Shown one piece after another: positions 3,351 through 31,959 of a stretch of 36,042 bases of DNA (its first letter is position 1; each line of letters opens with the position of its first letter). The notes below the pieces were generated by a model that saw only the letters and a program-made list of their open reading frames with translations, had not been told where the DNA came from and searched no databases. Source of the DNA: a virus; UHGV virus genome UHGV-0206538. The stretch is one strand, 5' to 3'. A program made the position numbers and the translations under genes.

Positions 3351-5815
3351 TGGACAGCATTAGAATTGCGATTTTAAGTGCAAATAACACGCCTGTAGCG
3401 TTTATGGATAATGCGCATAAAAAATCCATGCACTACTGGGGAGACGAGCTGCACGAATACTTACAAGGTACGGCAAATACGTACACTTTTACGGTAAACG
3501 CAAAACATCCAGACGCAGAACATGTTACAGTCGGAAACAAGGTAGCCTTTACATACAAGGGTAAATCTTACTACTTAAATATTGTAAATACCGATCAGAC
3601 GGAGAAGATAATTACCGCTACGGCATGGTCTCTGTCATTTGAGCTTATAAACGAGGATGCTGGCGAATATAAAGCCGAAAAAGCAATGAGCTTTGCAGAG
3701 TACCTTACCGTATTTGACGCAGAGAGAACGCTGAAATTGGGGCTTAACGAGGTATCAGATAAACGGATCACCAATGAGTGGACAGGCACAACGTCTGTAT
3801 TAAAGAGGCTATTTTCTCTGGCTAACGTATTTTCGGCAGAAATCGAATTCGAGACAGTACTGAACAGAGACTACTCTTTAAAAGAGATTGTCCTAAATGT
3901 ATATCGAGAACACTCCGACACCAACAGCGGAGTCGGAGGATACCGGAATGACATCGTACTGAGGTACGGGAAAGGGATTGCCGGAATCCGTAAGACCACG
4001 GATGCAGAAAAGTTATATACATGCATCCAGCCGACCGGAAAGGACGGTCTGACAATCAATGGACTGGATAAAAAAGAATACGATGAGAATGGGAATATTG
4101 AGTACTTTACAGACGGCGCAATCATCCGGGCACCACAGGCAAGGGACCGGTTCCCATCCAATATCGTAAATAAGGCTGATGCTTATATCCTGATGCGAAA
4201 AGAGTACGATACAGACAGCAAGGACAAGCTCTATAGCATGGCACTATCTGACCTCAAGACAGCATCCGAACCAGTAGTGACCTACGAGGTGGATGGATAT
4301 TTTGACACCAACATCGGGGACACCGTGAGGATGCAGGATCAGGAGTGGACACCAGTGCTTTATCTACAGGCGAGAGTGTCCGAACAGGTGCGCAGTCTTA
4401 CAAATCCAAAGACAGCAAAGACGGTATTTACAAACTACAAAGAGCTGATGTCCGAAATATCCGACGATCTCATTAAGAGGATGCAGGACTTAATTAACAA
4501 AAACAAGGTCTACACCTGCTCAATTGCCACAAACAATGGGATTATCTTTAAAAACGGCATCGGCAGCACCACACTAACTGCCTACGCTTACAACAACGGT
4601 GTTGATGTGTCTGGAAATCTGGAAATCCGATGGAGTAAAGATGGGACAGAGTTTTATGTCGGTAGGAGCGTGACGGTTAATGCAGAGGATGTGGATGTTA
4701 AGGCGGTTTACTCATTTACGGCGTTTGAAAACGGCGTGCGTAGAGGATATTACGAGGTCACGATCACAAATGTGGAAGACGGGCAGGACGGTGTTGGAAT
4801 TAAGAGCGTTACAAAATATTACCTTGCGTCCGAAAGAAATACGGGTATTACGACATCCACTTATGGATGGACCACCACAATACAGACCATGACGGAGACA
4901 AAAAAATACCTGTGGAGTTACGAAACAATCGCCTACGCAGACGGAAATTCCACCAAGACAACTCCTGTGATTATCGGTGTGCGTGGGGATAACGGCGAGA
5001 CAGGGGATAGTGGTATTATTATATCCCCCACAGCGCCAGAAAACCCAAAGGTTGGACAGCTCTGGCAGACCGCAAGCGGAGAGCCGATTAAAAGATGGGA
5101 TGGAAGTAAATGGGTGATCTATTACATTTCTGTAGAGAATCTGAATGTAGAGACGCTAAGTGCGATTGCCGCAAACCTCGGAACTGTAACCGCTGGACTT
5201 ATAAAGAGTCTGGACGGACACTTTTTTATCCAAGTAAATACCGGAGAGATCTACTCTGAAGATGAAAACGGGATAAACAGCTCTGCAATAAGCAAGGGTG
5301 TATTTGCAGCGAATGGGATGGACAGCGGCAGACACACAAGCTTGTCTATATTCCCAACGCAGATTGCGCAGTATTTTGACGGAGCCACCATTTCAAACCT
5401 TGTTAATTTTAAACGGGACGGTATATTTGTTAAAAGCTCCGGATCATACGAAATGAACATATCTAAAGCAATAAATTATGACTCTGGAAAGATAAAAGGA
5501 CCATACGCCAGCACAAACTCATCCAACTATATACAGGCGGAGCTAAAAAGGAGAGGGTGCGTGGTTACATGTAAAATCACAGCGCTTATACAGTTCCCGA
5601 ATACAGGATCGCACGGGCCGTTTGATGAATTAAGGATCCCTATAGGATATCGACCAGCCGTAGACATAGTAGAGACGTACAGCGAATTGGTTGGTCCGTC
5701 AGTTATCGGGACTGGCAGATATTATATCTCAAAAGACGGAGGAATATCCATTGTAACTGGCAAGACAGACTACTGCGAACGCATAAAGACATTTACATGG
5801 ATCACGGATGACTAA
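3350..5815 (+). CDS. Tail-associated / minor structural protein (Tal-like, prophage tail endopeptidase-type N-terminus; C-terminal part is the probable receptor-binding region)
   Basis: 821 aa. N-terminal region resembles phage minor structural protein / tail endopeptidase family. It is the last tail gene before the lysis cassette. Confidence 0.5.
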   Translation: MDSIRIAILSANNTPVAFMDNAHKKSMHYWGDELHEYLQGTANTYTFTVNAKHPDAEHVTVGNKVAFTYKGKSYYLNIVNTDQTEKIITATAWSLSFELINEDAGEYKAEKAMSFAEYLTVFDAERTLKLGLNEVSDKRITNEWTGTTSVLKRLFSLANVFSAEIEFETVLNRDYSLKEIVLNVYREHSDTNSGVGGYRNDIVLRYGKGIAGIRKTTDAEKLYTCIQPTGKDGLTINGLDKKEYDENGNIEYFTDGAIIRAPQARDRFPSNIVNKADAYILMRKEYDTDSKDKLYSMALSDLKTASEPVVTYEVDGYFDTNIGDTVRMQDQEWTPVLYLQARVSEQVRSLTNPKTAKTVFTNYKELMSEISDDLIKRMQDLINKNKVYTCSIATNNGIIFKNGIGSTTLTAYAYNNGVDVSGNLEIRWSKDGTEFYVGRSVTVNAEDVDVKAVYSFTAFENGVRRGYYEVTITNVEDGQDGVGIKSVTKYYLASERNTGITTSTYGWTTTIQTMTETKKYLWSYETIAYADGNSTKTTPVIIGVRGDNGETGDSGIIISPTAPENPKVGQLWQTASGEPIKRWDGSKWVIYYISVENLNVETLSAIAANLGTVTAGLIKSLDGHFFIQVNTGEIYSEDENGINSSAISKGVFAANGMDSGRHTSLSIFPTQIAQYFDGATISNLVNFKRDGIFVKSSGSYEMNISKAINYDSGKIKGPYASTNSSNYIQAELKRRGCVVTCKITALIQFPNTGSHGPFDELRIPIGYRPAVDIVETYSELVGPSVIGTGRYYISKDGGISIVTGKTDYCERIKTFTWITDD

Positions 5816-7693: not shown

Positions 7694-9094
7694 TTATAAA
7701 AAATCTACAGCTTTAATCGTATTGTCATCATTTAGGTAAATCTCCTGTATCGTGGATCTCCAAAAAGAACGCTTGTTTTCTGGAGACAGCGAATCATACA
7801 TCTGGCGAAAGTCAGTTTTTAATAATTCTTCTACATAATGCAGGTTTCTCGTCTCTTCTTCCTCGCAAAAAGCAGCAGAAGCGGAATATTCTCTCTCCAA
7901 TCTTTGGTACTCCTTATCGTAGTAATCGTAAGAGATCCGCCCCTTTTGAAATAACAAATTTAATCGTTCCATTTCTTTTCTAAGCTTTTTCGGATCTTTC
8001 GCTTTCTTTTGCTTTTTTAACTCTTCGCTGATCTGGTTGGTGCGAACCTTATACTTTTCGTACTCTCTTTCAAGATTTTCGAGCAGATATTTTTCGATAA
8101 GGTTCTGGCTTACCCTATGCCTATACGTGCAAATATGGTCTTTAAGCGCTCTATTGCAACGGTAGTAGCAGTATGTTCTTTTTTCTCCGGTTTTACGGTT
8201 GATAATTGATGAGCATCCGGTGCCAACTAATTTCTGTCCACATACAGGACAGCGCATCAAACCTGTAAATAGGTATACTCTGCCAGATGGTGTGCTTTTT
8301 ATATTTCTTTTCGAGATAGTTTGCATCTCATTCCATTCTTTTTCTGACAGGTAGGCGGGGCAATAAGGATACCCTCTGTACGTCCCCTTGTAAAATTCGC
8401 TCGATAACATTGTTCTCAACATTCCATAGCTAAAATCAATACCATAGACCTCTTGCATGTACCGGACAGCGCCCTTCTTGGAGTTATGATTTCTAAAATA
8501 TTCAAAAAAATCTTCCACCATGTGTTCTGTTTCCGAATCTTTAACCATGCATTTCTTCCCGTCCACGACACCTGTTTTATATCCAAAAGGCATATTTGCA
8601 TCTCCGAATATTAACTTCCTCTGTCTTATAGATGCTTCATTCACAAATTTAATTCGCTCGGATGTGGTGTCTACTTCATTTTGCCCGATCGACAGCACTA
8701 CATTTAACTGCAATCGTCCGTCTCTGGTCTCCATGTTTATTCCTGGCTCGGAAACCGAGATCCAACGCACTCCATGCTCATCAAGTACATCCTGGACCTT
8801 ATAGAAATCTGACAGATTTCGAAACCATCTGTCGAGTCTCCAGAAAATTATCACATCAATTTTATCCCTTTTTACGTCCTCTACAAGAGCGTGTATGGCT
8901 TTTCTTTTCTTCAATTCTTTTCTGGCAGTCTTTCCCTCGTCCGCATAGACACCTACTATAGACATATTGTTGTCTGTTGCGTATTGCTCCAGGCATTCTT
9001 TCTGTGCTTGCAGAGACTTGCCATGTACGCTCTGCTCAAATGTGGAGACGCGGATGTATATGGCACACCGCAGTATTTTTTCTGGCATTTGCAT
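7694..9094 (-). CDS. Large serine recombinase (phage integrase). True start is ATG at 9094 (RBS AAGGAGAG); the 534-aa track ORF carries a spurious N-terminal extension.
   Basis: N-terminal resolvase domain (…AIYIRVSTFEQ…, catalytic Ser in context). Recombinase domain. Zinc-ribbon CPVCGQKL…CYYRC. C-terminal coiled coil. Confidence 0.9.
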   Translation of the reverse strand: MQMPEKILRCAIYIRVSTFEQSVHGKSLQAQKECLEQYATDNNMSIVGVYADEGKTARKELKKRKAIHALVEDVKRDKIDVIIFWRLDRWFRNLSDFYKVQDVLDEHGVRWISVSEPGINMETRDGRLQLNVVLSIGQNEVDTTSERIKFVNEASIRQRKLIFGDANMPFGYKTGVVDGKKCMVKDSETEHMVEDFFEYFRNHNSKKGAVRYMQEVYGIDFSYGMLRTMLSSEFYKGTYRGYPYCPAYLSEKEWNEMQTISKRNIKSTPSGRVYLFTGLMRCPVCGQKLVGTGCSSIINRKTGEKRTYCYYRCNRALKDHICTYRHRVSQNLIEKYLLENLEREYEKYKVRTNQISEELKKQKKAKDPKKLRKEMERLNLLFQKGRISYDYYDKEYQRLEREYSASAAFCEEEETRNLHYVEELLKTDFRQMYDSLSPENKRSFWRSTIQEIYLNDDNTIKAVDFL

Positions 9095-9263
9095 CACTCT
9101 CCTTTTGTAAAATATATTTAAAATTGGTACAAAAATAACAGCCAGCGCAAAACATATGTTCCGCTTGCGTGACTGCCCCGAAGATGATACAATATTCGTG
9201 GATTTCAATCGCATATCTTCGGATATGTATACCGTCTCTGTTGGCGCAGGGGCGGTTTTTATT

Positions 9264-10295
9264 TTATTGTGGTGGATGGCAAATGCCGCACGGTTCATAA
9301 ACTCCGCGTACCTCAGACAGATGTTTTTCTATCTTAGATTTCAAAGTTCTGCATCCAGCACTATGATACTTTGCCCCAGTGTTTGTTATATACACGATAG
9401 GATCATCTTGGCTTTGCTGTGCAGCCTGCTCTTGTGCTGCTTGCGCTGCAGCTTGCTCTTGTGCAATCCTTTCTTGTTCAGCAGCCGCTGCCGCAGCCTG
9501 TTCTTGCTCAATACGCACCTGTTCAGCTGCTTGAGCTTCCTGTTCCAACCTAATCCGTTCTTCTTCCTCGGCTTTTATTCTCGCTTCTTCTTCCGGATCT
9601 ATAACGGTAATAGTTTTCGCACTGCTTTTAACTTCTCCATTCGCCGTAAAAAATAGTGATGCATTCCCAGAACCCGTAAATGTAATGACGGCTTTTCCGT
9701 CCTTATATTCGAGATCTGCGATATTATTTTCGGATAATTCCAAACTTTCGATTTTTGCGTCCGACGGGCTTGGAGTAATTTTTACCTCCGTTACATCTCC
9801 GATATTAAATTCTTCTTTCCCCCACTCTGCAGATATAGAGTTCAATTCAGATGGAGATCCAAGCCATATAAAGATAATTAGAGATGTTGCAAACACAATC
9901 GAGCATATCACAGTATTCCTGATCCTGTATGGCCGGAATTTTTTGGATACAACACAGTATATCAATACCGGTATGGCTGGTATCCATAAAAAAGAATACA
10001 CTACAAGTGCAATAGAGAGCATTATCAGCAAGGCAATAACACTAAGACATCCACCACCACTTTTATTCGATGCTTTACTCATTGTTTTCCCCTTGTTTTC
10101 TTTAGTTTTTCCGTTTTTGGTTTCTGTGTAATACAGTCCGCTCCCTGGAATTCCAAAGCTTTTTGTCCGTTTTCCGTCAGAATTAACAGTGTAGTGTATT
10201 CCTTTTCCGCCAAACGTGAAGCTATGGCTATTCTTGTTAAGATTAAACTTTATACCGGGAGCAATTTTAAAACTTTTTCTAAAACGAAATCCCAT
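9264..10295 (-). CDS. DUF4236-domain membrane protein with an extracytoplasmic beta-rich region, an Ala/Gln/Glu-rich coiled coil and a C-terminal Cys motif (…GAKYHSAGCRTL…EPCGICHP)
   Basis: N-terminus MGFRFRKSFKIAPGIKFNLNKNS…FGGKG matches DUF4236. Two to three TM helices. Low-complexity DNA repeats at 9420-9560. Confidence 0.6.
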   Translation of the reverse strand: MGFRFRKSFKIAPGIKFNLNKNSHSFTFGGKGIHYTVNSDGKRTKSFGIPGSGLYYTETKNGKTKENKGKTMSKASNKSGGGCLSVIALLIMLSIALVVYSFLWIPAIPVLIYCVVSKKFRPYRIRNTVICSIVFATSLIIFIWLGSPSELNSISAEWGKEEFNIGDVTEVKITPSPSDAKIESLELSENNIADLEYKDGKAVITFTGSGNASLFFTANGEVKSSAKTITVIDPEEEARIKAEEEERIRLEQEAQAAEQVRIEQEQAAAAAAEQERIAQEQAAAQAAQEQAAQQSQDDPIVYITNTGAKYHSAGCRTLKSKIEKHLSEVRGVYEPCGICHPPQ

Positions 10296-15868: not shown

Positions 15869-16050
15869 TGTATGTAGGTATCGGACCGGAGAAAGACATG
15901 GTAGTAACGGATGACCAAGCATTTGATTACGCACTGGAGAGATGCTTGCATGGAACACCAGATGACCAAAAAGAATTTAAAGAAATGCTGGTGGAATGGT
16001 TTTACTCCGGGAGTTGGGTAAAGGAAGAAAGCGAGGAAACCTATGCTTAA
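15865..16050 (+). CDS. Hypothetical protein (61 aa)
   Basis: ORF track; coupled to flanking genes. Confidence 0.4.
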   Translation: MMYVGIGPEKDMVVTDDQAFDYALERCLHGTPDDQKEFKEMLVEWFYSGSWVKEESEETYA

Positions 16051-16663
16051 AAGCTATGAAGAAATGAGGAAAGTAGATGTAAAACCATACCTCGAAAAAA
16101 GAGATGGTATGGACTATTTAAACTGGGCAATGTGCATTGATTTATTACATAAAAATGGGGCTGAAAATGTTTATTTTACTCCGATTCCAGACCCAGAAAC
16201 AGGAAGTAGCCTAAGGATGACAAAAGCGGTGTTTAAAGATAAAAACGGAGTTGAAAATAGATGTTACGAGACCAGAATCCGTGTTGTGATAGATGATCAA
16301 GTGTACGAGATGCAAACACCTGTGATGAATGGGGCAAACCCTGTAAAAGACAACTCTATGAGTCAGCAAAGAGTCTGGAACAGCATGTGCAGGGCGTTTG
16401 TGAAGTGCGTAGCAATACATACCGGCTTAGGGTTCGATTTGTGGCTTAAAGAGGAATACAACAAGATGTATGCTCAAATACCGGAAACGGGGGAAAACAG
16501 AGCGTCTGAAGCGAAAATCAAGACTCTCAAGAATCTATGCGTATCTCACGGTATCAATCTTGAACGCTGGTTGAGAGAAAACAATAGGACTGAGCAGACA
16601 CTTACCGAGACAGAAGCTGCAACAATGTTAAGCACAATAAAAAGGACTTACGGTGATGATTGA
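16043..16663 (+). CDS. Rad52-like single-strand annealing protein (Sak / DUF1071 family)
   Basis: …YLNWAMCIDLL… and …EMQTPVMNGANP… resemble DUF1071 signature blocks. Located in the recombination module before NinB and RusA. Confidence 0.5.
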   Translation: MLKSYEEMRKVDVKPYLEKRDGMDYLNWAMCIDLLHKNGAENVYFTPIPDPETGSSLRMTKAVFKDKNGVENRCYETRIRVVIDDQVYEMQTPVMNGANPVKDNSMSQQRVWNSMCRAFVKCVAIHTGLGFDLWLKEEYNKMYAQIPETGENRASEAKIKTLKNLCVSHGINLERWLRENNRTEQTLTETEAATMLSTIKRTYGDD

Positions 16664-17202
16664 TGAAATTCACAGGAAAATTAAAAGGCCGTTTGATAGA
16701 TTGCCACACCATCCTATTCAAATCCGAAGAGGACTTCCGACAAGCCTATGATGAGTTGAAAGATTATGAGAAATTAACGCTTGAAATAAAGCCATACAGA
16801 GCAAAGAGAAGCCTTGACGCAAACTCTTACTTGTGGGTGTTACTCGATAAATTAGCGGAAAAGTTGGACATCACCAGGTGGCAAGCGTACCTAAATGAAT
16901 TGAAATCCCACGGTGCTTTTGAGTACATACCGCTCAGGGAAAAAGATATCTATCTGGCACAGTCAGTGTTCCGGATTGTGATAGATCGTGGAGCACAGGA
17001 AGTAAAAGATCTAAAAGGGAGAGCTGAAACATTACACACTCTGCAATGCTACAAAGGGTCAAGCAAGTATAACACCAAGGAAATGAGCAGACTCATCAAA
17101 GGCGTGTTGGAAGATTGCAGAGAGGTTGGAATACCAGATGCAGACCTTTTGACCCCAGATGAAAAAGAAGAGCTTAGACAAAAATGGGGGATTGAACTGT
17201 GA
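16660..17202 (+). CDS. NinB/Orf-family recombination mediator
   Basis: …KRSLDANSYLWVLLDKLAEK… resembles the lambda Orf RSLDQNRKLW motif. Confidence 0.5.
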   Translation: MMKFTGKLKGRLIDCHTILFKSEEDFRQAYDELKDYEKLTLEIKPYRAKRSLDANSYLWVLLDKLAEKLDITRWQAYLNELKSHGAFEYIPLREKDIYLAQSVFRIVIDRGAQEVKDLKGRAETLHTLQCYKGSSKYNTKEMSRLIKGVLEDCREVGIPDADLLTPDEKEELRQKWGIEL

Positions 17203-17579
17203 GTATTGATTACAGTGACATGGCATTCCCAAAGCCGAAGCGAAAGAAAAAGAAAAAAGGTCATCAAAGAGCATCCGGCAGACCAAAGAAGCTGTGGAGC
17301 ATATTTACAGAAGATATGGATCACTGCATGTACACCGGAGTTTACGGAGTGGAGAGGCATCATGTTTTTAGTCACACATCGAAAGAAATTGAACTTTCGG
17401 AGGACTACGGCTTCATTGCCCCGTTGAGACCAGACCTACATCCAAACGGAACGAAAGCGGGGAAGAATGCAGCGAAAGTTGACCGACACTTAAGAAAACG
17501 CTGCAAGGAGTATTATTTGCAGCACTATGGAACAGAAGAGCAGTTCCGACAAGAATTTCACTATGTTAGCAAAGGGTAA
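17199..17579 (+). CDS. Hypothetical protein with a basic N-terminus and a Cys/His-His motif (CMYTGVYGVERHHVF); possible HNH-like nuclease
   Basis: Motif only; no confident family. Confidence 0.3.
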   Translation: MSIDYSDMAFPKPKRKKKKKGHQRASGRPKKLWSIFTEDMDHCMYTGVYGVERHHVFSHTSKEIELSEDYGFIAPLRPDLHPNGTKAGKNAAKVDRHLRKRCKEYYLQHYGTEEQFRQEFHYVSKG

Positions 17580-17689
17580 CCTTTCGCTATAAATTGTAAC
17601 CCGTTCATGGCTGCACAGTACGTCACAAATACCTTAAGTAAGCCAGATTCATTGTCTCCCGGTAATTCCGGGAGCAGAAAGGAGAATAA

Positions 17690-18100
17690 ATGGTAATTAC
17701 AATTCCGGGCAAACCGGTTGGAAAAGCAAGACCGAGATTCCGCAGAGCCGGATTTAAAGTCATTACATATACGCCACCAGAAAATAAAAAGTACGAAAAG
17801 GAAGTTGCAAGGATTTACAAGCAGAGTATAGGCGTGCTTTACACGGACATCCCTCTGAGAGTCCGAATTTTAGCGAAATTTCCGATTCCAGAGAGCTGGT
17901 CTAAGAAGAATAAGGAGAAAGCTTTAAAAGGCGAAATAATGCCAAATAAAAAGCCAGACTTAGATAATATCGCAAAAATCATTTTGGATGGACTGAATGG
18001 AGTCGCATATACGGATGATAAGCAGGTGACCAGTATGGAAATCGAAAAAGTGTATTCTGATGAGCCTTGCGTGGTGGTCTATATTGCGGAGGATGAGTAA
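17690..18100 (+). CDS. rusA: RusA Holliday-junction resolvase
   Basis: GKPVGKARPRF…PESWSKKNKEKALKGEIMPNKKPDLDNIAKIILDGLNGVAYTDDKQV is the canonical RusA pattern. Confidence 0.85.
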   Translation: MVITIPGKPVGKARPRFRRAGFKVITYTPPENKKYEKEVARIYKQSIGVLYTDIPLRVRILAKFPIPESWSKKNKEKALKGEIMPNKKPDLDNIAKIILDGLNGVAYTDDKQVTSMEIEKVYSDEPCVVVYIAEDE

Positions 18101-18927
18101 TGGCAGAAGTGAAGTGGATAAAGATAGCAACGGATATCTTTGATGATGAAAAGATATTGCTGATAGAGGGTTTGCCAGATGCTTATGCAATTATAACAGT
18201 CTGGTTCAAGTTGTTATGTCTTGCCGGGAAGAAAAATAACGGTGGCGTATTCCTGATGAATGACAAGATTCCCTACACAGACAAGATGCTGGCTACAATC
18301 TTTAGAATGAATGAATCTACTGTAAAGTTGGCTTTGAATGCGTTTGAGCAATTCAAAATGATTGAGATAGTGGAGGGAATAATCACGATCCCGAACTGGA
18401 ACAAGCACCAGACATTGGATGCTTATGAACGAAAAAAGGAGCGTGACAGGCTGTACCAAGAGGAAAGAAGAGCCAAACAGAGAGCTTTGATTGAAAAATC
18501 GTCTGACAAGTCGTCTGAAAGAACGTCTTACGTCGCTGTTTCAGATATAGATAAAGAAGAAGATAAAGATATAGATAAAGAAAGAGATATAAGAGGTAAT
18601 AGAGTGGATTATCAGCAAATAGCTGATATGTATAATGCCACTTGCGTGTCATTCCCTCGCTTAACACGATTGTCTGAAAAAAGAAAACGGGCAATTAAAG
18701 CAAGATTAAGAAAATATTCCATTGATGACATTCAGAGAGTATTTGAGATAGCAGAAGAAAGTGACTTCCTAAAAGGCGAAAATAACCGGAATTGGTCAGC
18801 GGACTTTGATTGGATGATGAATGACACGAATATGGCGAAGATTCTGGATGGAAAATATGCAAACCGGAAGAGCACAGCATCGTCGAAAAAAGCAAAAGAT
18901 GAATGGAGCGAATTTTTAAATGAATAA
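18100..18927 (+). CDS. Phage replisome organiser (Phage_rep_org_N) with a conserved phage C-terminal domain (DnaD-like)
   Basis: MAEVKWIKIATDIFDDEKILLIEGLPDAYAIITVWFKLL… N-terminus; C-terminal …RLTRLSEKRKRAIKARLRKYSIDDIQRVFE…. Confidence 0.7.
   Translation: MAEVKWIKIATDIFDDEKILLIEGLPDAYAIITVWFKLLCLAGKKNNGGVFLMNDKIPYTDKMLATIFRMNESTVKLALNAFEQFKMIEIVEGIITIPNWNKHQTLDAYERKKERDRLYQEERRAKQRALIEKSSDKSSERTSYVAVSDIDKEEDKDIDKERDIRGNRVDYQQIADMYNATCVSFPRLTRLSEKRKRAIKARLRKYSIDDIQRVFEIAEESDFLKGENNRNWSADFDWMMNDTNMAKILDGKYANRKSTASSKKAKDEWSEFLNE
18544..18590. repeat. Iteron-like direct repeats GATATAGATAAAGAA (x2, 18544 and 18568) plus further AGATAAAG copies inside the replisome organiser gene; candidate origin of replication
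   Basis: Read directly; they encode an acidic DIDKEEDKDIDKERDI linker. Confidence 0.4.
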
Positions 18928-19252
18928 AAAAGAGTTTGCGACAATCGCAATGGGAATCCGCGGTGCATATCCAAAAGCGCAGATACTGGAGACGACAGAA
19001 GAAAAGGAGCTATGGTACGGAATGCTAAAGGATATGCCGTACATGGAAGTTGCTGGCAATTTAAAGAGACATATACAGCACAGCAAGTTCGTTCCAACCA
19101 TTGCGGAGTTAAGGAATGAGCATCGAAGGATGGATAACAATAATTTTAAGCGCAGGTACTACGATATGGACAATCTGGAAATGCAGTTACTAAATGCGCA
19201 AGAAAGGGCGTTAGAGGTTAAATATGGCACGGGAATTGAAACACAGCTTTAG
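18920..19252 (+). CDS. Hypothetical protein (110 aa)
   Basis: ORF track; overlaps the previous stop. Confidence 0.45.
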   Translation: MNKKEFATIAMGIRGAYPKAQILETTEEKELWYGMLKDMPYMEVAGNLKRHIQHSKFVPTIAELRNEHRRMDNNNFKRRYYDMDNLEMQLLNAQERALEVKYGTGIETQL

Positions 19253-19351
19253 CAGCCACAGAAAACAGTCCGCCGGATTCAAACCGGGCAACATGGCAGC
19301 GTTTATGTACGGCAGCACAAAGCGGAAGAGAAAGAACAGGGTGAGAGGAAA

Positions 19352-19618
19352 ATGAGTAGACAAGCACACTTTCTGGATCCGTACAAGTTCCAGATCGAAG
19401 AGATGGTAAAGCTCGGATGCACGGATGAGCATATCCATAAAGTCTTGCATGACATCCAGAAAATAGAATTCCCGAAAGAAACTCTTATCCGGTACATGGA
19501 TAAGACTGGGATTCGGAAGAGAAGAGCAGCGAAAAGATGGACGCGGAGCAAAGAGGTTGAGTGGGAAGAGCTTTGCAAGCAGTTGCGAGGAAATAAGAAG
19601 AAAATAAACGAAAAATAG
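19352..19618 (+). CDS. Hypothetical protein (88 aa), basic C-terminus; possible small HTH protein
   Basis: ORF track; RBS GAGAGGAAAA. Confidence 0.4.
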   Translation: MSRQAHFLDPYKFQIEEMVKLGCTDEHIHKVLHDIQKIEFPKETLIRYMDKTGIRKRRAAKRWTRSKEVEWEELCKQLRGNKKKINEK

Positions 19619-19668
19619 AAAGGAGCCAGCCTCCGGCCGGGGCAAGGGTATACCGGGCTTCTGAGAAA

Positions 19669-21030
19669 ATGGAAAATTTGATTATAGATTGCTTCGCCGG
19701 AGGAGGTGGAGCGAGTGTAGGAATAGAAATGGCACTTGGAAGACAAGTAGATATTGCGATCAATCACGATCCTGATGCGATTTTGATGCACAAGACAAAC
19801 CATCCGAAAACATTGCATCTAACAGAAGATATCTTCAAGGTGGATTTGAAGAAATATGTGAAAGGAAAGCGAGTTGCTTTAATGTGGGCGAGTCCTGATT
19901 GTACCAGCCACAGTAAGGCGAAAGGTGGGAAGCCGAGGGAAAAAGGACTTCGGATTTTGCCTTGGGCGGTATACAAACACGCAAAAGCAATTCTCCCAGA
20001 TGTGATTATTATGGAAAACGTGGAAGAGATTCAGCAGTGGGGACCTTTGGATGAAAACGGGCATCCGATTAAGGAACGGCGTGGGGAAGATTATGAGAAG
20101 TTCATTACGGCAATGAAGAGTCTTGGGTATATATTCGACTGCCGGGAGCTTATTGCGGCAGACTATGGCGCGCCTACCACGAGAAAGCGCTGGTATGCAA
20201 TTTTCAGGAGAGATGGAAAAGACATCGTGTGGCCAGAAAAGACAAATTTTAAATCCAGAGATCCGAAATGGCAGGAATGCGGGGCATATATCGATTGGTC
20301 TGATTTAGGGAAAACGATATTTGATAGACCGAAACCGTTGGCAGATGCAACGATGAAAAGGATTGCAAATGGAATCAGAAAATATGTAATAGACAATCCA
20401 TCTCCCTATATCGTGAGAAATAAAGATGCTGTTGCATTTATGATTCAGCACCACGGAGAAACAAAAATTGGAGAATCAAGAGGACAGTTGCTGACAGAAC
20501 CAATTAAAACAATCGACACGTCAAACAGGTACGGGCTGGTGACAGCTTTTATTACAAAATTTTATAAAAGTGGAATCGGACAGGGATGCAACGAACCTTT
20601 ACACACAATCACAACATCACCTGGACATTTTGGATTGATATCTGCGTTTTTAATTAAGTATTACGGAACTGGCGGAGGGCAAGAACTTTCAAATCCGCTT
20701 GCAACGATTACTACAAAAGATCGTTTCGGACTGGTAAATGTGATCCTGGATATCAAAGGCGAAAAGTATGTCCTGAAGGATATTTTCCTGAGAATGTTAA
20801 AACCGGAAGAACTTAAATTAATGCAGGGATTTCCGGAGGATTACATTATTGACAGGGATTACAAATACAGGAGATATCCGATCGCAAAACAAGTGGCTAG
20901 AATCGGAAACAGTGTAGTGCCAATCATGGCACAGAAACTGGTAGAAGCAAACTGCCCGTATTTAAAAATCGGGAATAGGGTGCCGAACATAGAAATATAC
21001 GAGGATGAGCAGCAAATTAGGTTTGCGTAG
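19669..21030 (+). CDS. DNA (cytosine-5)-methyltransferase, phage orphan type
   Basis: Motif I DCFAGGGGAS, motif IV-like ASPDCTSHSKA (PC), motif VI IMENVEEI (ENV). C-terminal region with three tandem ~30-aa repeats (FGLV.AF..K.Y…PL.TITT). Confidence 0.8.
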   Translation: MENLIIDCFAGGGGASVGIEMALGRQVDIAINHDPDAILMHKTNHPKTLHLTEDIFKVDLKKYVKGKRVALMWASPDCTSHSKAKGGKPREKGLRILPWAVYKHAKAILPDVIIMENVEEIQQWGPLDENGHPIKERRGEDYEKFITAMKSLGYIFDCRELIAADYGAPTTRKRWYAIFRRDGKDIVWPEKTNFKSRDPKWQECGAYIDWSDLGKTIFDRPKPLADATMKRIANGIRKYVIDNPSPYIVRNKDAVAFMIQHHGETKIGESRGQLLTEPIKTIDTSNRYGLVTAFITKFYKSGIGQGCNEPLHTITTSPGHFGLISAFLIKYYGTGGGQELSNPLATITTKDRFGLVNVILDIKGEKYVLKDIFLRMLKPEELKLMQGFPEDYIIDRDYKYRRYPIAKQVARIGNSVVPIMAQKLVEANCPYLKIGNRVPNIEIYEDEQQIRFA

Positions 21031-21045
21031 TAGGAGGAATGACTA

Positions 21046-21456
21046 ATGCCAAAAACAGAAGAAACATGGATGGACGGGATCACAACGGAAATGATGGAGC
21101 ATATCTGCGACAACCTGTGTAAGTATCCAGGTCAGCTAAGTGAAATGGAACTGGACGATAAATGCGCAGAGTGCAAGATGGGACGGTTTGTGTGCGATAT
21201 TTTGAACCAGTATAACAAGGTGAATGATTTTACAAACAGCCGGTGTGCGAAGCTGTTGGAGCAGATGCATGAGATGAAAGAGCGTGATACGGCGAAGAAA
21301 CCAGAAGAAGTAGACTATGAATTAGGTTATTTCGTTTGCCCAAGCTGCAGAGAGTCAATATGTTTTATTGATGGACATGCAGAAGAGCACGAATGCTGTC
21401 TGAAGTGCGGCCAGAGATTAGATTGGAGCGAGGAATATCATGATGGGAAGATGTAA
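21046..21456 (+). CDS. Cysteine-rich hypothetical protein (multiple CxxC pairs, likely zinc-binding)
   Basis: CDNLC…CAEC…CPSC…CLKC motifs. Confidence 0.45.
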   Translation: MPKTEETWMDGITTEMMEHICDNLCKYPGQLSEMELDDKCAECKMGRFVCDILNQYNKVNDFTNSRCAKLLEQMHEMKERDTAKKPEEVDYELGYFVCPSCRESICFIDGHAEEHECCLKCGQRLDWSEEYHDGKM

Positions 21457-21589
21457 ATTAACAAGTATATGCGGACACGATTATTGCTGCATAGAATGTC
21501 CGGACAACGATATTTGTAATATACAGTGTGCAGATGAGGACATGTATGAGTATTGTGTGGAGTGTCCGGAATATGAGGAGGTGGAATAG
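21440..21589 (+). CDS. Small cysteine-rich ORF (49 aa, MMGRCKLTSICGHDYCCIECPDNDICNIQCADEDMYEYCVECPEYEEVE)
   Basis: RBS GAGGAA. Its end supplies the GGAGGTGGAATAG RBS and stop immediately before ATG 21590. Not in the ORF track. Confidence 0.35.
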   Translation: MMGRCKLTSICGHDYCCIECPDNDICNIQCADEDMYEYCVECPEYEEVE

Positions 21590-22033
21590 ATGAGAGAAGT
21601 TCTTTTCAAAGCAAAGAGAAAAGACAATGGTGAATGGGTGGAAGGGTATGTTGTTGCATATCCTTCTGGAAAAGTGGAAATACACAAAATTAGCAAAGAA
21701 TTACCAGATATATTACTAAAATGCGAGATTGCTCCAAGTACTTTATGCCAGTACACCGGACTTACCGACAAAAACGATAAGAAGATCTGGGAGAATGATA
21801 TTCTCAGATATAGTTATGACTATGATGGAAGTCCGTTTTTAAAAGATGGCGAAGAGATAAAATATCGTGTAGGTGCTGTGTTTTGGAGCGAATGGAGGGG
21901 ATCATGGGCAGTATGTGGACGAGGAAATAAAAAATGCACCAATAACGATGTTTTTAAATATAATCGGAATCCAAATAGAACGGAAGTTATCGGAAACATT
22001 TTTGACAATCCAGAGCTGTTGGAGGTGGAGTGA
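21590..22033 (+). CDS. YopX-family phage protein
   Basis: …QYTGLTDKNDKKIWENDIL… and …EVIGNIFDNPELL are YopX signature blocks. Confidence 0.75.
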   Translation: MREVLFKAKRKDNGEWVEGYVVAYPSGKVEIHKISKELPDILLKCEIAPSTLCQYTGLTDKNDKKIWENDILRYSYDYDGSPFLKDGEEIKYRVGAVFWSEWRGSWAVCGRGNKKCTNNDVFKYNRNPNRTEVIGNIFDNPELLEVE

Positions 22034-22221
22034 TGAACGTATTAGAGAAAATCATAGAAGAAATCGAATCCATGAAAAATGACGCCTACGAAACCTTGAA
22101 GGAAGAAAAGCGAAAACACGGAGCGAGCAAAACAGCGAAAGAGCTGGAAAGCTATATTTATGGGCTGACTTGTGCAGCAGATGTCGTAGAGAAGTATGTG
22201 GATAAGGAGGATACGGAATGA
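22030..22221 (+). CDS. Hypothetical protein (63 aa)
   Basis: The N-terminus MNVLEKIIEE is repeated at the start of the next gene. Confidence 0.4.
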   Translation: MMNVLEKIIEEIESMKNDAYETLKEEKRKHGASKTAKELESYIYGLTCAADVVEKYVDKEDTE

Positions 22222-22688
22222 ACGTACTAGAGAAGATTTTGGAAGAAAAAGAAATTGTAGCGATCAAAGAACTAATAGAAGAAAATGAAAAATGCTTTAA
22301 TCAATGCGAAGGTGCTTGCTTTGACGTGGAAGATGGTATATGCAATTGCGATGATGGCGTGATAGTGCAAGCAATTCGTAAAATGAAGAAGTATTTAGAG
22401 TTGGCCAAGGACACAAATGTCCCTAGTAAAAACGGTTGGATTCCGGTAAGTGAGAAATTGCCGGAAGATGATGATATGAGATTCTATATGTGTATTGTCG
22501 AAAATCACGAAGAGGATTTGCCGATGTTCTGCCAGTATGATGGAGAATATGGATTTGGATTTTGGCATGATATTTACGATTCGGAAAGTTTAGGATTCGT
22601 TGATACGGAGTTTAATACAAATGATGAATTGGGGTATGAAAAGGTTGTAGCATGGCAGCCACTTCCAGAACCATACAAGGAGGAATAA
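22218..22688 (+). CDS. DUF551-domain phage protein with an N-terminal Cys-rich segment
   Basis: C-terminal …NGWIPVSEKLPE…VVAWQPLPEPYKEE matches the DUF551 hallmark. Confidence 0.55.
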   Translation: MNVLEKILEEKEIVAIKELIEENEKCFNQCEGACFDVEDGICNCDDGVIVQAIRKMKKYLELAKDTNVPSKNGWIPVSEKLPEDDDMRFYMCIVENHEEDLPMFCQYDGEYGFGFWHDIYDSESLGFVDTEFNTNDELGYEKVVAWQPLPEPYKEE

Positions 22689-23486: not shown

Positions 23487-23752
23487 CAAGAGAGAGCATG
23501 AAACGTAGAAAGGAGACAGCAGGAGTTATCCGAAAGATTGAAGCGTACACTATGGCAACGAGGAAGCCCTGTGAAACGGCTTTAAAGCAAAAGGGGCATA
23601 AAGCCTTTGCCTGCGACTTTAAAGGCGGCGAGAGGGCGAATAAGGACGCTGTGGAGTACATAGCAGAGAAATACAACATAAAAGAGCCAATTCCTGGAGG
23701 TGATAGAGTTGGACAAGAAAACACTGAAAAAGTACAAACCAAACAAAGATAG
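23483..23752 (+). CDS. Hypothetical protein (89 aa)
   Basis: ORF track. Confidence 0.4.
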   Translation: MTRESMKRRKETAGVIRKIEAYTMATRKPCETALKQKGHKAFACDFKGGERANKDAVEYIAEKYNIKEPIPGGDRVGQENTEKVQTKQR

Positions 23753-24122
23753 ACTTATCCGGATTGAGAACCAGATACAAGAACTCTGTGAACGAGAGTC
23801 AACTGTGGTCATGGGGAAAGTAACTGGATCCAGCGCAGATTTTCCGTACACCGAAGTGAGAACATCTGTACAAATGTATGATCCTTACGAGGAAGAGAAT
23901 ATAAGACGTCAGATCAGAAGAAAAGAAGCGGACAGGCTGCGGATTCTGAAAGAGCAAAAAGAAGTCGAGGACTACATAAATGGGATTGATGATCCGGAGA
24001 TTAAGGAGATATTCGAGTTGCACTATCTTGAGGGGAAAACCCAGCAAAAAGTCGCAGATGAAATTGGATATACCCAGGCGCGAGTATCGCAGATTATAAG
24101 CGCACAGCTTAAAGATTTATAG
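23700..24122 (+). CDS. Putative late-gene transcriptional activator with a sigma-70 region-4-like HTH (ArpU/RinA-like position). The start may be TTG 23709 (RBS GGAGG 8 nt upstream) rather than GTG 23700.
   Basis: C-terminal …EIFELHYLEGKTQQKVADEIGYTQARVSQIISAQLKDL; last regulatory gene before the packaging module. Confidence 0.45.
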   Translation: MIELDKKTLKKYKPNKDRLIRIENQIQELCERESTVVMGKVTGSSADFPYTEVRTSVQMYDPYEEENIRRQIRRKEADRLRILKEQKEVEDYINGIDDPEIKEIFELHYLEGKTQQKVADEIGYTQARVSQIISAQLKDL

Positions 24123-24200
24123 CATTTATATTTTACTTATGCTATAATTATTCTAGAACGATTGTATATTGTTCTAAAACAATCTTTCCAAACATTCGGA

Positions 24201-24241
24201 ACACCGCCGGACTTTCCCTTTCTCGTCTGGCGGTGTTTTTA
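24201..24241 (+). terminator. Rho-independent terminator closing the early/middle operon
   Basis: ACACCGCCGGAC…GTCTGGCGGTGT stem (one mismatch) followed by TTTTT. Confidence 0.65.
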
Positions 24242-24242
24242 T

Positions 24243-24288
24243 GCCGTGGCAAATGTAGGGCAGACAGGTTCGACTCCTGTACACGGCT
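24243..24288 (+). ncRNA. tRNA-like minihelix: a T-arm (ACAGG-TTCGACT-CCTGT) with a pseudo-acceptor stem (GCCGTGG / ACACGGC) but no D or anticodon arms
   Basis: Read directly. The T-loop has the canonical T-Psi-C-G-A pattern. Only 14 nt separate the 5' acceptor strand from the T-arm. Confidence 0.35.
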
Positions 24289-24487
24289 TTGTGATGTAAG
24301 GTTTGCGGCTTACCAGCTGGGGGTTGCTGTAGGGAGTGCACACCGGCTTTACATCACAAATGGTACCAAAACGCAGATATCCGCAGATCTGCAAAACAAA
24401 CAAAAATAGATTCAGCAATCTATATTTAGTGTAATCAGCGTACCCGAGTGCGGATAGGGTAAAGGATGTCAATAAAAGGCATCCTAC

Positions 24488-24560
24488 GGGTGTATAGCTC
24501 AGTTGGCAGAGCAATCGGCTGTTAACCGATGTGTCGCAGGTTCGAGTCCTGCTATACCCG
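24488..24560 (+). tRNA. tRNA-Asn (anticodon GTT), 73 nt, CCA not encoded
   Basis: Manual fold: acceptor GGGTGTA/TATACCC, D-stem GCTC/GAGC, anticodon stem ATCGG/CCGAT with loop CTGTTAA, T-stem GCAGG/CCTGC with loop TTCGAGT, discriminator G. Confidence 0.85.
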
Positions 24561-24721
24561 TTGTGGACTACTGCAAGGTTCCTCCTTTTTCTTATAAATT
24601 TTGATTGTGTATTTGGTTATTTTGGTTTTTGTTGGCATTTGCAATCCTTTCGAGCAGTAGTCCTAAATTCTTGGCATCCAGAGATGGGTGCTTTTATTAT
24701 GTTTTAAAGGTGGTGAGTCGG

Positions 24722-25189
24722 ATGGCGAAAGGTAAATATCAGGAATGGCTAGAGCCGGAAGGCTTGCTAAAGATAGAGGGATGGGCGAGAGATGGTCTGA
24801 CGGACGAGCAGATTGCAGATAATATCGGGATTTCCAGAAGCACATTAAATACCTGGAAAGACAAGTATTCGGACATTTCGGACACCCTAAAAAGAGGGAA
24901 AGAGGTCGTTGATCGTCAAGTTGAGAATGCTCTGTTAAAACGTGCGCTCGGATATGAGTACACGGAAACAACCAGGGAATACATACCGGAACTTGATGAG
25001 ATGAAAACTACGAAAAAGGTCACAAAGCAAGTAGTACCAGACACAACAGCCCAGATCTTTTGGTTAAAGAACCGGAAACCGGACAAATGGAGAGATAAGC
25101 AGGAATACGAGGATAGAACAGCAATTGAAAAGCTGGATGAAATCTTGAAAGGATTGCATGACAATGCAGCTAAGCAAAAAACAGAATGA
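24722..25189 (+). CDS. terS: Terminase small subunit (start moved to ATG 24722, RBS AAAGGTGGTGA)
   Basis: …EWLEPEGLLKIEGWARDGLTDEQIADNIGISRSTLNTWKDKY… is a typical TerS HTH; overlaps the large subunit start. Confidence 0.75.
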   Translation: MAKGKYQEWLEPEGLLKIEGWARDGLTDEQIADNIGISRSTLNTWKDKYSDISDTLKRGKEVVDRQVENALLKRALGYEYTETTREYIPELDEMKTTKKVTKQVVPDTTAQIFWLKNRKPDKWRDKQEYEDRTAIEKLDEILKGLHDNAAKQKTE

Positions 25190-26492
25190 ATACATCATAA
25201 ACGCAACTCATAGATGGAATATCAAGTCCGGAGCGGTTCGTTCTGGAAAGTCTTTTGTTGATACCGCTTATATCGTCCCGAAAAGAATCCGAGAGAGAGA
25301 TGGACTCCCTGGCTTAAATGTAATCATGGGTGTCTCCAAAGAATCCATAGAGCGAAACGTACTCCAACCGATGAGGGAAATCTATACCAGTGATCTAATC
25401 GGGAACATTAACAACCGCAATGTGGCAAGAGTATGCGGAGAGGATGTCTATTGTCTCGGAGCGGAAAAGGTCAGCCAAGTCGCAAAGATACAGGGAGCAT
25501 CCATTAAGTACTGCTACGGAGATGAGATAGCAAAATGGAACAAAGAGGTGTTCCAGATGCTGAAATCCCGTCTCGATAAGACGTACTCCTGTTTTGATGG
25601 AGCTTGCAACCCAGAACATCCGACACACTGGCTCAAAGAGTTCATCGACAATGTAGAGCTGGACATCTATCTCCAAAAGTACACGATATTTGATAATCCA
25701 TTTCTGGATCCAGAATTTGTTAAGCAACTCTGCAAGGAATATGAGGGTACAATCTATTATGACCGCCTCATCCTTGGCTTATGGAAACGAGCAGATGGAG
25801 CGATTTATAAGCGGTTTGCTGACAATCCAGAAGCGTTCAAATGCGAAATCGTGGATGAGTTCTCGCAGGAATCAGAGCATAAGCAATTCCGAAAAGAGGA
25901 TATCACATCAATCGAGATTGGCTTGGACTTTGGTGGTAATCAATCTGGTCACTCATTCGTTGCCAGAGGATATACGGACAACTACAGAGACGTGATTGCT
26001 TTAAAATCCAGAAGAGTCATGGCTAAGGATGAAAACGAGGACATCGACAGTAATCGACTGAACAAGCTGTTCTGCGAGTTTGTACAAGAAGTGATAGATG
26101 ATTACTCTGTGTGCGTGAAGAGTGGAGACTATGTACAGTATTGTAACGTAGAGTCCGTATTCTGGGACAATGCAGAAACCGTCCTTGGTAATTCTATCCG
26201 CAATGCCGTGGAAAAGGAATTTCCGTGGATAGCTGTCAAACCAGCAAAGAAAAGACCTATAAACGACAGAATCAGATGCACCGTCAAGCTCATGGGGGCT
26301 GGGCGGTTTTTTATTACAAAAGACTGCGAATCTCTGCAAACTGCTTTTTCGGATGCAGTTTGGGACAAAGAAGCTGTCGGGAAAGATGAGCGTTTGGATG
26401 ACGGCAGCACTGACATTGACAGCTTGGATGCGTTCGAATACACAATCGAACGTGACATGAAATACCTAATCGAAGAGGTGGAAGATGTTTGA
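25158..26492 (+). CDS. terL: Terminase large subunit (PBSX/Terminase_6 type)
   Basis: Walker A GAVRSGKS near the N-terminus, 444 aa, followed by portal. Confidence 0.8.
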   Translation: MTMQLSKKQNEYIINATHRWNIKSGAVRSGKSFVDTAYIVPKRIRERDGLPGLNVIMGVSKESIERNVLQPMREIYTSDLIGNINNRNVARVCGEDVYCLGAEKVSQVAKIQGASIKYCYGDEIAKWNKEVFQMLKSRLDKTYSCFDGACNPEHPTHWLKEFIDNVELDIYLQKYTIFDNPFLDPEFVKQLCKEYEGTIYYDRLILGLWKRADGAIYKRFADNPEAFKCEIVDEFSQESEHKQFRKEDITSIEIGLDFGGNQSGHSFVARGYTDNYRDVIALKSRRVMAKDENEDIDSNRLNKLFCEFVQEVIDDYSVCVKSGDYVQYCNVESVFWDNAETVLGNSIRNAVEKEFPWIAVKPAKKRPINDRIRCTVKLMGAGRFFITKDCESLQTAFSDAVWDKEAVGKDERLDDGSTDIDSLDAFEYTIERDMKYLIEEVEDV

Positions 26493-31273: not shown

Positions 31274-31330
31274 TAAGTAAGGCATTAGCACATAGAGATA
31301 TGTGTTATTTTTATGCCTTTTTGGTCAGTA
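31274..31330 (+). terminator. Compound hairpin (GGCAT…ATGCC with inner CACAT…ATGTG) followed by TTTTT
   Basis: Read directly. Confidence 0.4.
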
Positions 31331-31407
31331 GATGAGACCTTAAACAGTCAATTCGTGGTGGATGGTTACACACCTAAAAATAACCTAATGCGAAAGGAGA
31401 TCGAAAC

Positions 31408-31959
31408 ATGAAAACAGAATTTTTAAAAGGACTCGGATTGGAACAGGATGTTATTGATAAGATCATGGCAGAGAACGGGAAAGACATTGCCGCTGAAAAG
31501 GCAAAGACAACCAAAGCAGAGGGTGAGCGTGACAATTACAAGAGTCAGCTTGAGACTGCAACGGAATCTTTAGAGAAATTTAAAGATGTTGACCCAACAG
31601 CTATGCAGGGCGAGATTGATAAACTGAATCAGCAGTTGAAAGACAAAGATGCCGAGTATGCCGCAAAAGAAGCGGATCGCATCTTTTCCGACACGATCAA
31701 AGAAGCGATCAAGACAGCCGGCGGTCGCAACGAAAAAGCGGTCATGGCTATGCTTGATATGGATGCTTTGAAAGAATCGAAAAACCAGTCTGAGGACATC
31801 AAAAAAGCATTGGAAACCGTAAAGGAGTCTGATGCTTATTTATTTGGTTCTAATGAACCATTCATGAACGCAGTCGGAGCAACAGGAGGCGGTGCCGATG
31901 TTGGTGGAGATAATCTGTCAGCAATCAGAGCGGCTATGGGACTTCCGGCAGAAAAATAA
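31408..31959 (+). CDS. Capsid scaffolding protein
   Basis: 183 aa, highly charged and helical, immediately upstream of the major capsid gene. Confidence 0.65.
   Translation: MKTEFLKGLGLEQDVIDKIMAENGKDIAAEKAKTTKAEGERDNYKSQLETATESLEKFKDVDPTAMQGEIDKLNQQLKDKDAEYAAKEADRIFSDTIKEAIKTAGGRNEKAVMAMLDMDALKESKNQSEDIKKALETVKESDAYLFGSNEPFMNAVGATGGGADVGGDNLSAIRAAMGLPAEK

Follow-up and report, generated by a model that had tools for sequence, protein, structure and literature searches.

Between the late regulator gene and the terminase genes of the 36,042-nt virus genome UHGV-0206538 (hereafter the window, meaning the whole stretch of DNA analysed), we found a structured non-coding leader cassette of ~570 nt, and within it a 45-nt element that is the top half of a former transfer RNA (tRNA), with a GG loop that could close the elbow. 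Comparison with related loci indicates that this position of the cassette, which we call slot A, is occupied by a real, selected, tRNA-derived RNA module, and we tentatively read this module as a handle through which host RNase P and RNase Z cut the late-operon leader, the likeliest of the roles considered and one it quite possibly has. The window is the circularly permuted genome of a temperate siphophage of ~36 kb, which over this region is ~91% identical to the Ruminococcus (Mediterraneibacter) gnavus phages RG-TP1 and phiRM10. The leader cassette of R. gnavus phages was previously undescribed; our literature search returned no paper describing the region, and two R. gnavus phage papers give tRNA gene counts only.

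The comparison set consisted of 8 GenBank phages and ~150 IMG/VR contigs with the same intergenic cassette. Because these loci were gathered by exact patterns taken from module C and from the slot A allele A2, the apparent conservation of those two parts is inflated, and because all compared sequences are close kin, the shuffle controls given below overstate significance. The cassette runs in the order direct repeats and promoter, leader with hairpin T1, slot A, module B, module C, tRNA, module D with hairpin T2, and first late gene (Table 1).

In the window, slot A carries a minihelix (the mini-tRNA, allele A1). Its acceptor stem of 6 bp (24243-24248 with 24282-24287; GCCGTGG begins at 24243 and ACACGGC spans 24281-24287) is stacked on a T stem of 5 bp (ACAGG 24264-24268 with CCTGT 24276-24280), the two being separated by a single G24249/A24281 mismatch, and the T loop TTCGACT (24269-24275) has the form TTCRANN. 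A connector of 14 nt that contains GG (24250-24263) replaces the D arm, anticodon arm and variable loop. The first-pass annotation, made from the letters alone, had described the element as resembling the 3' half of a tRNA at the head of a densely structured region and had listed a phage small RNA among its possible identities; its motifs were all recovered in place, and both descriptions held up, the element being tRNA-derived, + strand specific and under selection for pairing. The dense structure was likewise confirmed, since the + strand of 24243-24486 folded to -77.1 kcal/mol (z = -3.07; 0/200 shuffles as good) and the - strand to -65.3 kcal/mol (z = -1.95), and comparative data back the helices.

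The minihelix was never called as a tRNA. ARAGORN made no tRNA call for it at 100, 70 or 50% thresholds or in mitochondrial mode, 24243-24288 gave no match to the tRNA model RF00005 even at E ≤ 10 (gathering threshold 29 bits), and its only Rfam match at E ≤ 10 was to tRNA-Sec, with a score of 17.8 bits where 47 are required. The relaxed tRNA and Rfam searches that had been proposed as a check thus returned the adjacent tRNA-Asn and not the minihelix. A decoding tRNA was rejected by these tests; because the D stem and the whole anticodon arm are lost, the minihelix cannot decode.

Slot A held a tRNA-like element in each of the 116 loci that could be judged. These comprised the A1 minihelix (27 loci), the A2 minihelix (44), a cloverleaf-like element of 73 nt termed A3 (36) and its variant A3' (9), giving at least three unrelated alleles (the A1/A2 minihelices, A3 and A3'). 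Acceptor sequences are wholly different between alleles (GCCGTG versus GCGGAGT), and the T loop reads TTCGA in every allele, with positions 59-60 varying as they do in genuine tRNAs. Allele A2 keeps a typical D-loop string, TCAGTTGGGA, and for its acceptor and T arm there are matches among real tRNAs, a Companilactobacillus tRNA-Thr being one, from which it follows that the minihelices arose from tRNA by internal deletion.

Nor does the cloverleaf-like allele look like a decoder. The best Rfam match of A3 was again tRNA-Sec (28.3 bits against a threshold of 47), and it fell below the Rfam tRNA threshold. It has G3-C70 and so lacks the G3:U70 alanine identity pair, its anticodon-loop positions 32 and 38 can form a Watson-Crick pair that closes the loop to 5 nt, and its acceptor stem of 8 bp with G-1:C73 is like that of tRNA-His. 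A3' has the anticodon loop GGTATCG and received no ARAGORN call. The tRNA-Ala(CGC) that GenBank lists in four published R. gnavus phages of the phiRg series is A3 (Table 1), and this annotation is doubtful. Slot A is always tRNA-like and never a convincing decoder.

Substitutions within the minihelices follow the pairing. Among 18 distinct A1/A2 minihelices, 99.5% of stem cells were paired, with 17 G-U cells against 1 A-C cell; three pairs had changed on both sides and every other recurrent change gives G-U. None of 500 column shuffles reached the observed values, and slid registers fell to 29-57% paired. The GGTTCGA of the T arm and the GG of the connector were invariant, and together with the stem covariation this points to selection on the acceptor, T-arm and elbow half, the anticodon half being dispensable.

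A decaying tRNA pseudogene, preserved only within a recently spread and recombining cassette, would be expected to behave otherwise. About 9 in 10 of the inferred one-sided stem substitutions give G-U and not a mismatch, against ~50% expected, and the pairs changed on both sides, the T-loop core that never varies while positions 59-60 do, and the retention of the top half by unrelated alleles all speak against decay. No locus (0/116) has lost the element, though module B, leader type, tRNA identity and both flanking genes have been freely exchanged. Such a hitchhiking relic would account for the clear origin from a tRNA by internal deletion and for the mismatches seen in some variants (a C-A pair in L048 and an A-C pair in the D stem of the L034-type A3), and the neighbouring sequences, at 85-98% identity, have had little time for decay; on balance we consider it unlikely.

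A protein-coding origin of the conserved sequence was rejected. A 58-aa open reading frame (ORF) at 24233-24409 (+) and the RG-TP1 "hypothetical protein" XPO97280.1 (L004 1477-1620) overlap the terminator-like hairpin, the minihelix and module B, and both are almost certainly not genes, because the overlapping alleles carry indels that are not multiples of three.

Extending the comparison of wobble and mismatch cells to the rest of the cassette gave G-U to A-C ratios of 83:6 for module B, 140:5 for module C and 28:10 for module D, beside the 17:1 of the minihelix. This asymmetry identifies the conserved molecule as + strand RNA, not duplex DNA or a - strand transcript.

The cassette is a mosaic of exchangeable modules across the relatives and is kept apart from the fate of its neighbours. 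Only 37 of 100 loci contain a recognisable copy of the window's rinA allele, and only 29 of 105 its terS/terL. Phage phiRgIBDN1 has the same cassette too, although its terS and terL are unrelated and its RinA is barely similar: its terminases are bIL285-like proteins, those of the window a gp3-like terS with a Terminase_6N large subunit, and the cassette is at least 94% conserved between them. The cassette therefore travels independently of the regulator and packaging genes, and the structure persists across related phages, whose failure to conserve it the first-pass annotation had named, together with the lack of a stable transcript, as grounds for discarding the element.

These observations also decide against a site acting at the DNA level. 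Its position just upstream of terS and the abundance of inverted repeats and palindromes had suggested part of a cos/pac recognition region or a remnant of an attP or att core left by a former tyrosine-integrase module. Both identities were rejected, because the cassette is shared across unrelated terminases and RinA alleles, the integrase is distant and no host tRNA matches. For cos/pac, the cassette recurs beside terS and terL genes without similarity to the window's own, the genes downstream in the window being shared by only 29 of 105 loci, and helices that tolerate G-U but not A-C have a property of + strand RNA. For an att core, the integrase is a serine recombinase encoded 15 kb away, unrelated tRNA-like alleles fill the slot, and comparison with the 3' ends of host tRNA genes found no M. 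gnavus tRNA with the 3' half of the minihelix in the species-representative genome collection; that half occurs in tRNAs of other taxa and in one prophage of a Lachnospiraceae metagenome-assembled genome. Palindromic hexamers were only marginally enriched as a signal of a DNA site (244 nt contain 6, the mean is 2.6, and 5% of windows of the same size reach that count). We regard a DNA-level function as very improbable.

The sequence ahead of slot A suggests how the cassette would be expressed. Two ATTTATA direct repeats 9 nt apart (24115 and 24124) lie at the stop codon of the regulator gene and are followed by an extended -10 element, TGcTATAAT (24140-24148). Each rinA allele has its own 9-nt-spaced direct repeats directly after the stop codon and then a promoter: L001 carries three copies of TTGTCC (1429-1457), and L020 two copies of TGTTCTAAA (4715-4732) ahead of a TTGACA-17-TGgTATACT promoter with 11/12 matches. 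Judged by their arrangement, the allele-specific repeats are probable RinA/Ltr binding sites. Ltr/RinA activators have been shown experimentally to act through regulator-specific repeats with the terS promoter downstream, and in phages with different regulators the remaining intergenic region is still conserved (PMC3753634). By sequence, the region fits the definition of an Ltr/RinA-controlled late promoter region given in that work.

Downstream of this putative promoter, the leader ends in hairpin T1 (24202-24212 with 24225-24235), whose loop TTTCCCTTTCTC is CU-rich, and in a U-tract (24236-24240); it stops 2 nt short of the minihelix. The leader of the window is kept in 105 of 117 loci; the remainder have two other types of hairpin with U-tract, making three T1 types among the relatives, always 2-4 nt before slot A. 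What the first-pass annotation took for the terminator of the early operon is better read as a hairpin and U-tract within the leader, because the promoter that follows the RinA/Ltr-type repeats precedes it. The leader (24154-24242) itself resembles a small RNA, with a 5' hairpin at its predicted start and CUUUCC in the CU-rich single strand, and gave a weak, sub-threshold Rfam match of the LhrC type (23 bits). The loop of the T1 terminator hairpin is 12 nt long (UUUCCCUUUCUC). Termination at T1 and an RNase P cut at 24242/24243 would leave 3' ends that nearly coincide.

A minihelix of acceptor stem and T arm is all that RNase P, RNase Z and the CCA-adding enzyme need in a substrate. U at position -1 is preferred by bacterial RNase P, and the RNase Z of Bacillus cleaves precursors that lack CCA just after the discriminator, with a preference for U74. 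The slot A element presents these signals: 6 + 5 bp with one mismatch, a discriminator T24288 followed by TT, and no encoded CCA, all alleles being alike. U at -1 (T24242) occurs in every allele and with every leader type, and the absence of CCA with UU after the discriminator is common to the mini-tRNA and tRNA-Asn. In addition, each tRNA or tRNA-like element is flanked by a hairpin whose end lies 2-7 nt upstream (T1 and H4) and by a long-range stem that begins 3-4 nt downstream (P1 of module B and the stem of module D). From these features together we infer cleavage by the host tRNA-processing enzymes.

In the proposed mechanism, the leader would be transcribed from the RinA/Ltr-controlled promoter after the rinA-like gene into terS, and both the mini-tRNA and the real tRNA would be recognised by host tRNA-processing enzymes. 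The RNase P sites would be the U24242-G24243 bond and the 5' side of G24488, and RNase Z would cut after the discriminators T24288 and G24560. Five pieces would result: a leader RNA ending in T1, the mini-tRNA, a B-C RNA of ~200 nt (24289-24487), tRNA-Asn, and a late messenger RNA (mRNA) starting from stem D; apart from the mini-tRNA and tRNA-Asn, each would begin or end in a stable hairpin. Since a processing handle needs only the tRNA shape, any tRNA-shaped element would fit slot A and the anticodon arm could be lost. Two loci (L192 and L195) in which module B is dispensed with while A and C persist are in keeping with this role.

Several points weigh against a processing handle. The promoter assignment and both cleavages are themselves predictions from sequence. 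T1 resembles an efficient intrinsic terminator and would lie between the promoter and the mini-tRNA, so read-through must be assumed. P1 of module B can pair up to the discriminator through weak A-U pairs (24288-24290), which might hinder RNase Z. A single RNase P cut, at tRNA-Asn, would already free the mRNA from its leader, and it is not obvious why a second handle should be needed. The sequences are closely related, and their recent shared ancestry accounts for part of the conservation. Finally, a pure handle leaves the near-invariance of module C and the diversification of module B around palindromic loops unexplained, and the released RNAs may therefore have functions of their own.

One such function would be that of a free effector or decoy, in which the excised, CCA-tailed minihelix accumulates late and titrates a host factor that binds the acceptor end, T arm or elbow. 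Candidate targets are tRNA-targeting abortive-infection toxins (of nucleotidyltransferase, pyrophosphokinase or acceptor-stem nuclease type), an aminoacyl-tRNA synthetase and the CCA-adding enzyme. The top half is kept in 116/116 loci with the anticodon arm dispensable, loci with B deleted still have the element, an arms race might explain why there are several A alleles, and the cassette is common to phages of the same host group with unrelated structural modules, as expected of a host-directed function. The wholly different acceptors of the alleles, however, argue against mimicry of one specific host tRNA, and sequence does not separate an effector from a passive processing handle. We give this role a small chance.

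Module B, which follows the mini-tRNA, is a three-way junction in the window (allele B1), and at least six alleles occur. P1 (24288-24301 with 24347-24360) includes a perfect 12-bp inverted repeat, TTTGTGATGTAA / TTACATCACAAA (24288-24299 / 24349-24360), with CGGCTTT ahead of each arm (24284 and 24344), and in alleles B1, B2 and B5 it was 96.7% paired with many G-U. P2 has 7 bp (24305-24311 with 24321-24327) and the palindrome CAGCTG in its loop (24314-24319); its stem sequences are wholly different between B1, B2 and B5. P3 is short (24330-24333 with 24343-24345), with loop GAGTGCACA (24334-24342). Across these three alleles the P2 and P3 stems covary, and CAGCUG and GAGUGCACA stay unchanged as loop palindromes; the matching loop of allele B4 carries AAGCGCGC, and B3 and B3' differ by two compensatory pairs. 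A GTAAG/CTTAC hairpin (24296 and 24309), noted earlier as enclosed by the inverted repeat, is present, but it competes with the 12-bp stem and is not conserved; the conserved inner helices are P2 and P3. In L192 and L195, module B is reduced to ~18 nt with the A2 minihelix and module C retained.

The apical-loop palindromes of module B are GC-rich, 6 nt long and preceded by purines (AC-CAGCUG-G, GA-GUGCAC-A, and AA-GCGCGC in B4 of L010). GUGCAC and GCGCGC are the palindromes of the two natural HIV-1 dimerisation loops, with 5' purines alike. After the B loops come GGTACC (24362-24367) and a 10-nt palindrome, GCAGATCTGC (24383-24392).

Module C consists of four hairpins joined by A-rich linkers: H1 (24373-24392; GCAGAT at 24373 with ATCTGC at 24387), H2 (24406-24423; TAGATT at 24407 with AATCTA at 24417), H3 (24441-24461; TACCC with GGGTA) and H4 (24463-24485; AGGATG at 24463 with CATCCT at 24480), the last ending 2 nt before tRNA-Asn. 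Three of these had been recognised in the first-pass annotation, which missed H3. Across 97 distinct sequences, most columns were at least 98% identical, and the module offers almost no covariation. Its recurrent polymorphisms (24377, 24442, 24445, 24466 and 24470) are all G-U compatible on the + strand, and H2 variants keep pairing, including that of L192 and L195 with a different loop and stem. On the - strand, H1 (24372-24393) followed by TTTTGG scores as terminator-like; a role there is unlikely, because the A-to-G change at 24377 gives G-U on the + strand only.

Modules A, B and C are contiguous, all form + strand structures and travel together, and the minihelix might on these grounds remain uncut as the 5' tRNA-like domain of one larger RNA of ~245 nt, possibly pairing with itself or a partner through the B loops and loosely comparable to ROOL and GOLLD, large phage RNAs associated with tRNAs. 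The P2 and P3 stems that covary while palindromic loops stay, and the near-invariance of module C, would suit such a molecule. Against it, no Rfam family was matched, ROOL and GOLLD included; palindromic hexamers show only a mild enrichment, L192 and L195 lack nearly all of B, and the UU after the discriminator resembles an RNase Z site. An uncut RNA of this kind seems to us rather improbable. We view as similarly doubtful a joint reading in which the mini-tRNA, once excised and CCA-tailed, acts as a top-half mimic that absorbs a host factor attacking or sensing tRNA acceptor ends or elbows, such as an abortive-infection toxin, beside a B-C RNA that self-associates through its palindromic loops, the two forming a non-coding, host-directed moron in the late leader.

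The canonical tRNA-Asn(GTT) after module C occupies a slot that holds Asn, Ile(TAT) or an unclassified tRNA-like sequence in the relatives; in L192 and L195 it reads by eye as Trp(CCA). Module D then forms a conserved long-range stem of 10 bp, GGACTACTGC (24565-24574) with GCAGTAGTCC (24654-24663), around a variable, U-rich interior with a CCUCC motif. The first late gene has a Shine-Dalgarno region to which the motif CCUCCUUU in this stretch is complementary. The terminator-like hairpin T2 (24673-24692, GAGA loop) ends 30 nt before terS, its U-tract 22 nt before the terS start at 24722, and T2 with its U-tract overlaps a promoter-like TTGGCA-18-TATTAT.

Table 1 Features of the cassette and its surroundings in the window, and doubtful annotations of slot A in relatives
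Feature	Position	Strand	Remarks
Mini-tRNA, slot A, allele A1	24243-24288	+	minihelix 24243-24287 + discriminator-like T24288
Putative Ltr/RinA-dependent late promoter	24115-24148	+	repeats + extended -10; predicted assignment
Leader RNA	24154-24242	+	5' hairpin 24154-24176, CU-rich single strand, hairpin T1, U-tract
Module B, allele B1, three-way junction	24288-24367	+	P1, P2, P3, then GGTACC 24362-24367
Module C	24368-24487	+	four hairpins, A-rich linkers; nearly invariant
tRNA-Asn(GTT)	24488-24560	+	ARAGORN + Rfam, 70.2 bits; canonical; no encoded CCA, TTG next
Module D	24565-24700	+	long-range stem, U-rich interior, T2 hairpin, U-tract
RinA/Ltr-type late regulator	23700-24122	+	Sigma70_r4, weak DUF1492; stop codon 24120-24122
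terS (small terminase subunit)	24722-25189	+	gp3-like helix-turn-helix
terL (large terminase subunit)	25158-26492		Terminase_6N
Integrase, serine recombinase	7694-9298	-	15 kb from minihelix
Doubtful tRNA-Ala(CGC)	L001 1567-1639 (MT980840)		A3
Doubtful tRNA-Ala(CGC)	L005 1567-1639 (MT980837)		A3
Doubtful tRNA-Ala(CGC)	L006 1568-1640 (MT980838)		A3
Doubtful tRNA-Ala(CGC)	L007 1565-1637 (MT980836)		A3

Other identities were searched for and rejected. A primer for reverse transcription, one of the earlier suggestions, found no partner: a scan of the ten early ORFs (16043-22688) against PHROGs detected no reverse transcriptase or tRNA-repair gene. ARAGORN reported no transfer-messenger RNA (tmRNA) at default settings, the relevant pair is C3-G70 and not G3:U70, and a permuted tmRNA call at the 50% threshold is implausible because it overlaps tRNA-Asn. 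A theta or hepatitis delta virus (HDV)-like ribozyme descriptor matched 0 of 51 B alleles while recovering the positive control drz-Mtgn-1; after tRNA-Asn it gave a single all-wobble match that is not credible. HDV-type Rfam families gave no match at E ≤ 10 in four allele combinations, and at the same cutoff nothing relevant was found for ROOL, GOLLD, Y RNA, T-box or other families. In the window as a whole, the only Rfam models above their gathering scores were tRNA and GP20-b, the latter motif lying at 31323-31387 (+; 48.6 bits against a gathering threshold of 36.2) just upstream of a head-region ORF (31408-31959).

Phage tRNA genes are usually interpreted as decoders that adjust codon usage or counter host defence. 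Here, one tRNA slot is always non-decoding yet conserved in shape throughout a widespread family of gut-phage cassettes, which points to tRNA architecture being used purely as an RNA-processing or RNA-mimicry module in a late control region. The result also corrects what four published R. gnavus phages carry as tRNA-Ala. The processing role makes simple predictions that can be tested: the leader should be cleaved by RNase P and RNase Z, and its RNAs should have ends at defined positions. Should the released RNAs prove active on the host, they would add new non-coding players to the biology of a clinically relevant gut bacterium.

The setting of the cassette is that of known Ltr/RinA late-promoter regions, with a regulator upstream, allele-specific repeats, a conserved remainder of the intergenic region and terS downstream (PMC3152322, PMC3753634), whereas a leader of ~570 nt with tRNA, tRNA-like and hairpin modules is not described in the papers searched. 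ROOL and GOLLD share the Firmicute-phage and tRNA neighbourhood and the dense structure, but the cassette RNA is much smaller, has another architecture and matched no covariance model. Theta ribozymes, which are minimal HDV-like ribozymes, sit directly 3' of gut-phage tRNAs (PMC10879173). They too are structured elements of gut phages that begin where a tRNA or tRNA-like gene ends, and they would give a tRNA 3' end without RNase Z; module B, by contrast, is a nested three-way junction and not a double pseudoknot, and neither the G1/P1-P2 topology nor a J4/2 cytosine could be made to fit it. Like the minihelix, the tRNA-like domain of tmRNA combines an acceptor stem with a T arm and a D-loop analogue and has no anticodon arm, but the minihelix has C3-G70 and lacks G3:U70, an mRNA-like tag region and pseudoknots.

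In lambdoid Shiga toxin (Stx) phages, the tRNA genes ileZ-argN-argO stand downstream of PR'/tR' in the late-operon leader. There, too, tRNA genes lie between the late regulator or promoter with its terminator and the first late genes; those of Stx phages are canonical decoders, whereas here one slot is always non-decoding and modules B, C and D are interleaved. The closest parallels are tRNA-like signals for RNase P and RNase Z, as in MALAT1 mascRNA, mitochondrial tRNA punctuation, the C4 antisense RNA of P1/P7 and the stable RNAs of the T4 tRNA cluster. In all of these, a tRNA shape within a longer transcript is cut and does not decode, the geometry of its acceptor and T arm is kept, and the cuts define the flanking RNAs. 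The present element differs in being a minihelix without anticodon arm and D stem, bridged by a 14-nt connector, in its position beside a genuine tRNA in the late leader of a Firmicute phage, and in that its cleavage is predicted; among the systems compared, the slot A element is best filed with these tRNA-like processing elements.

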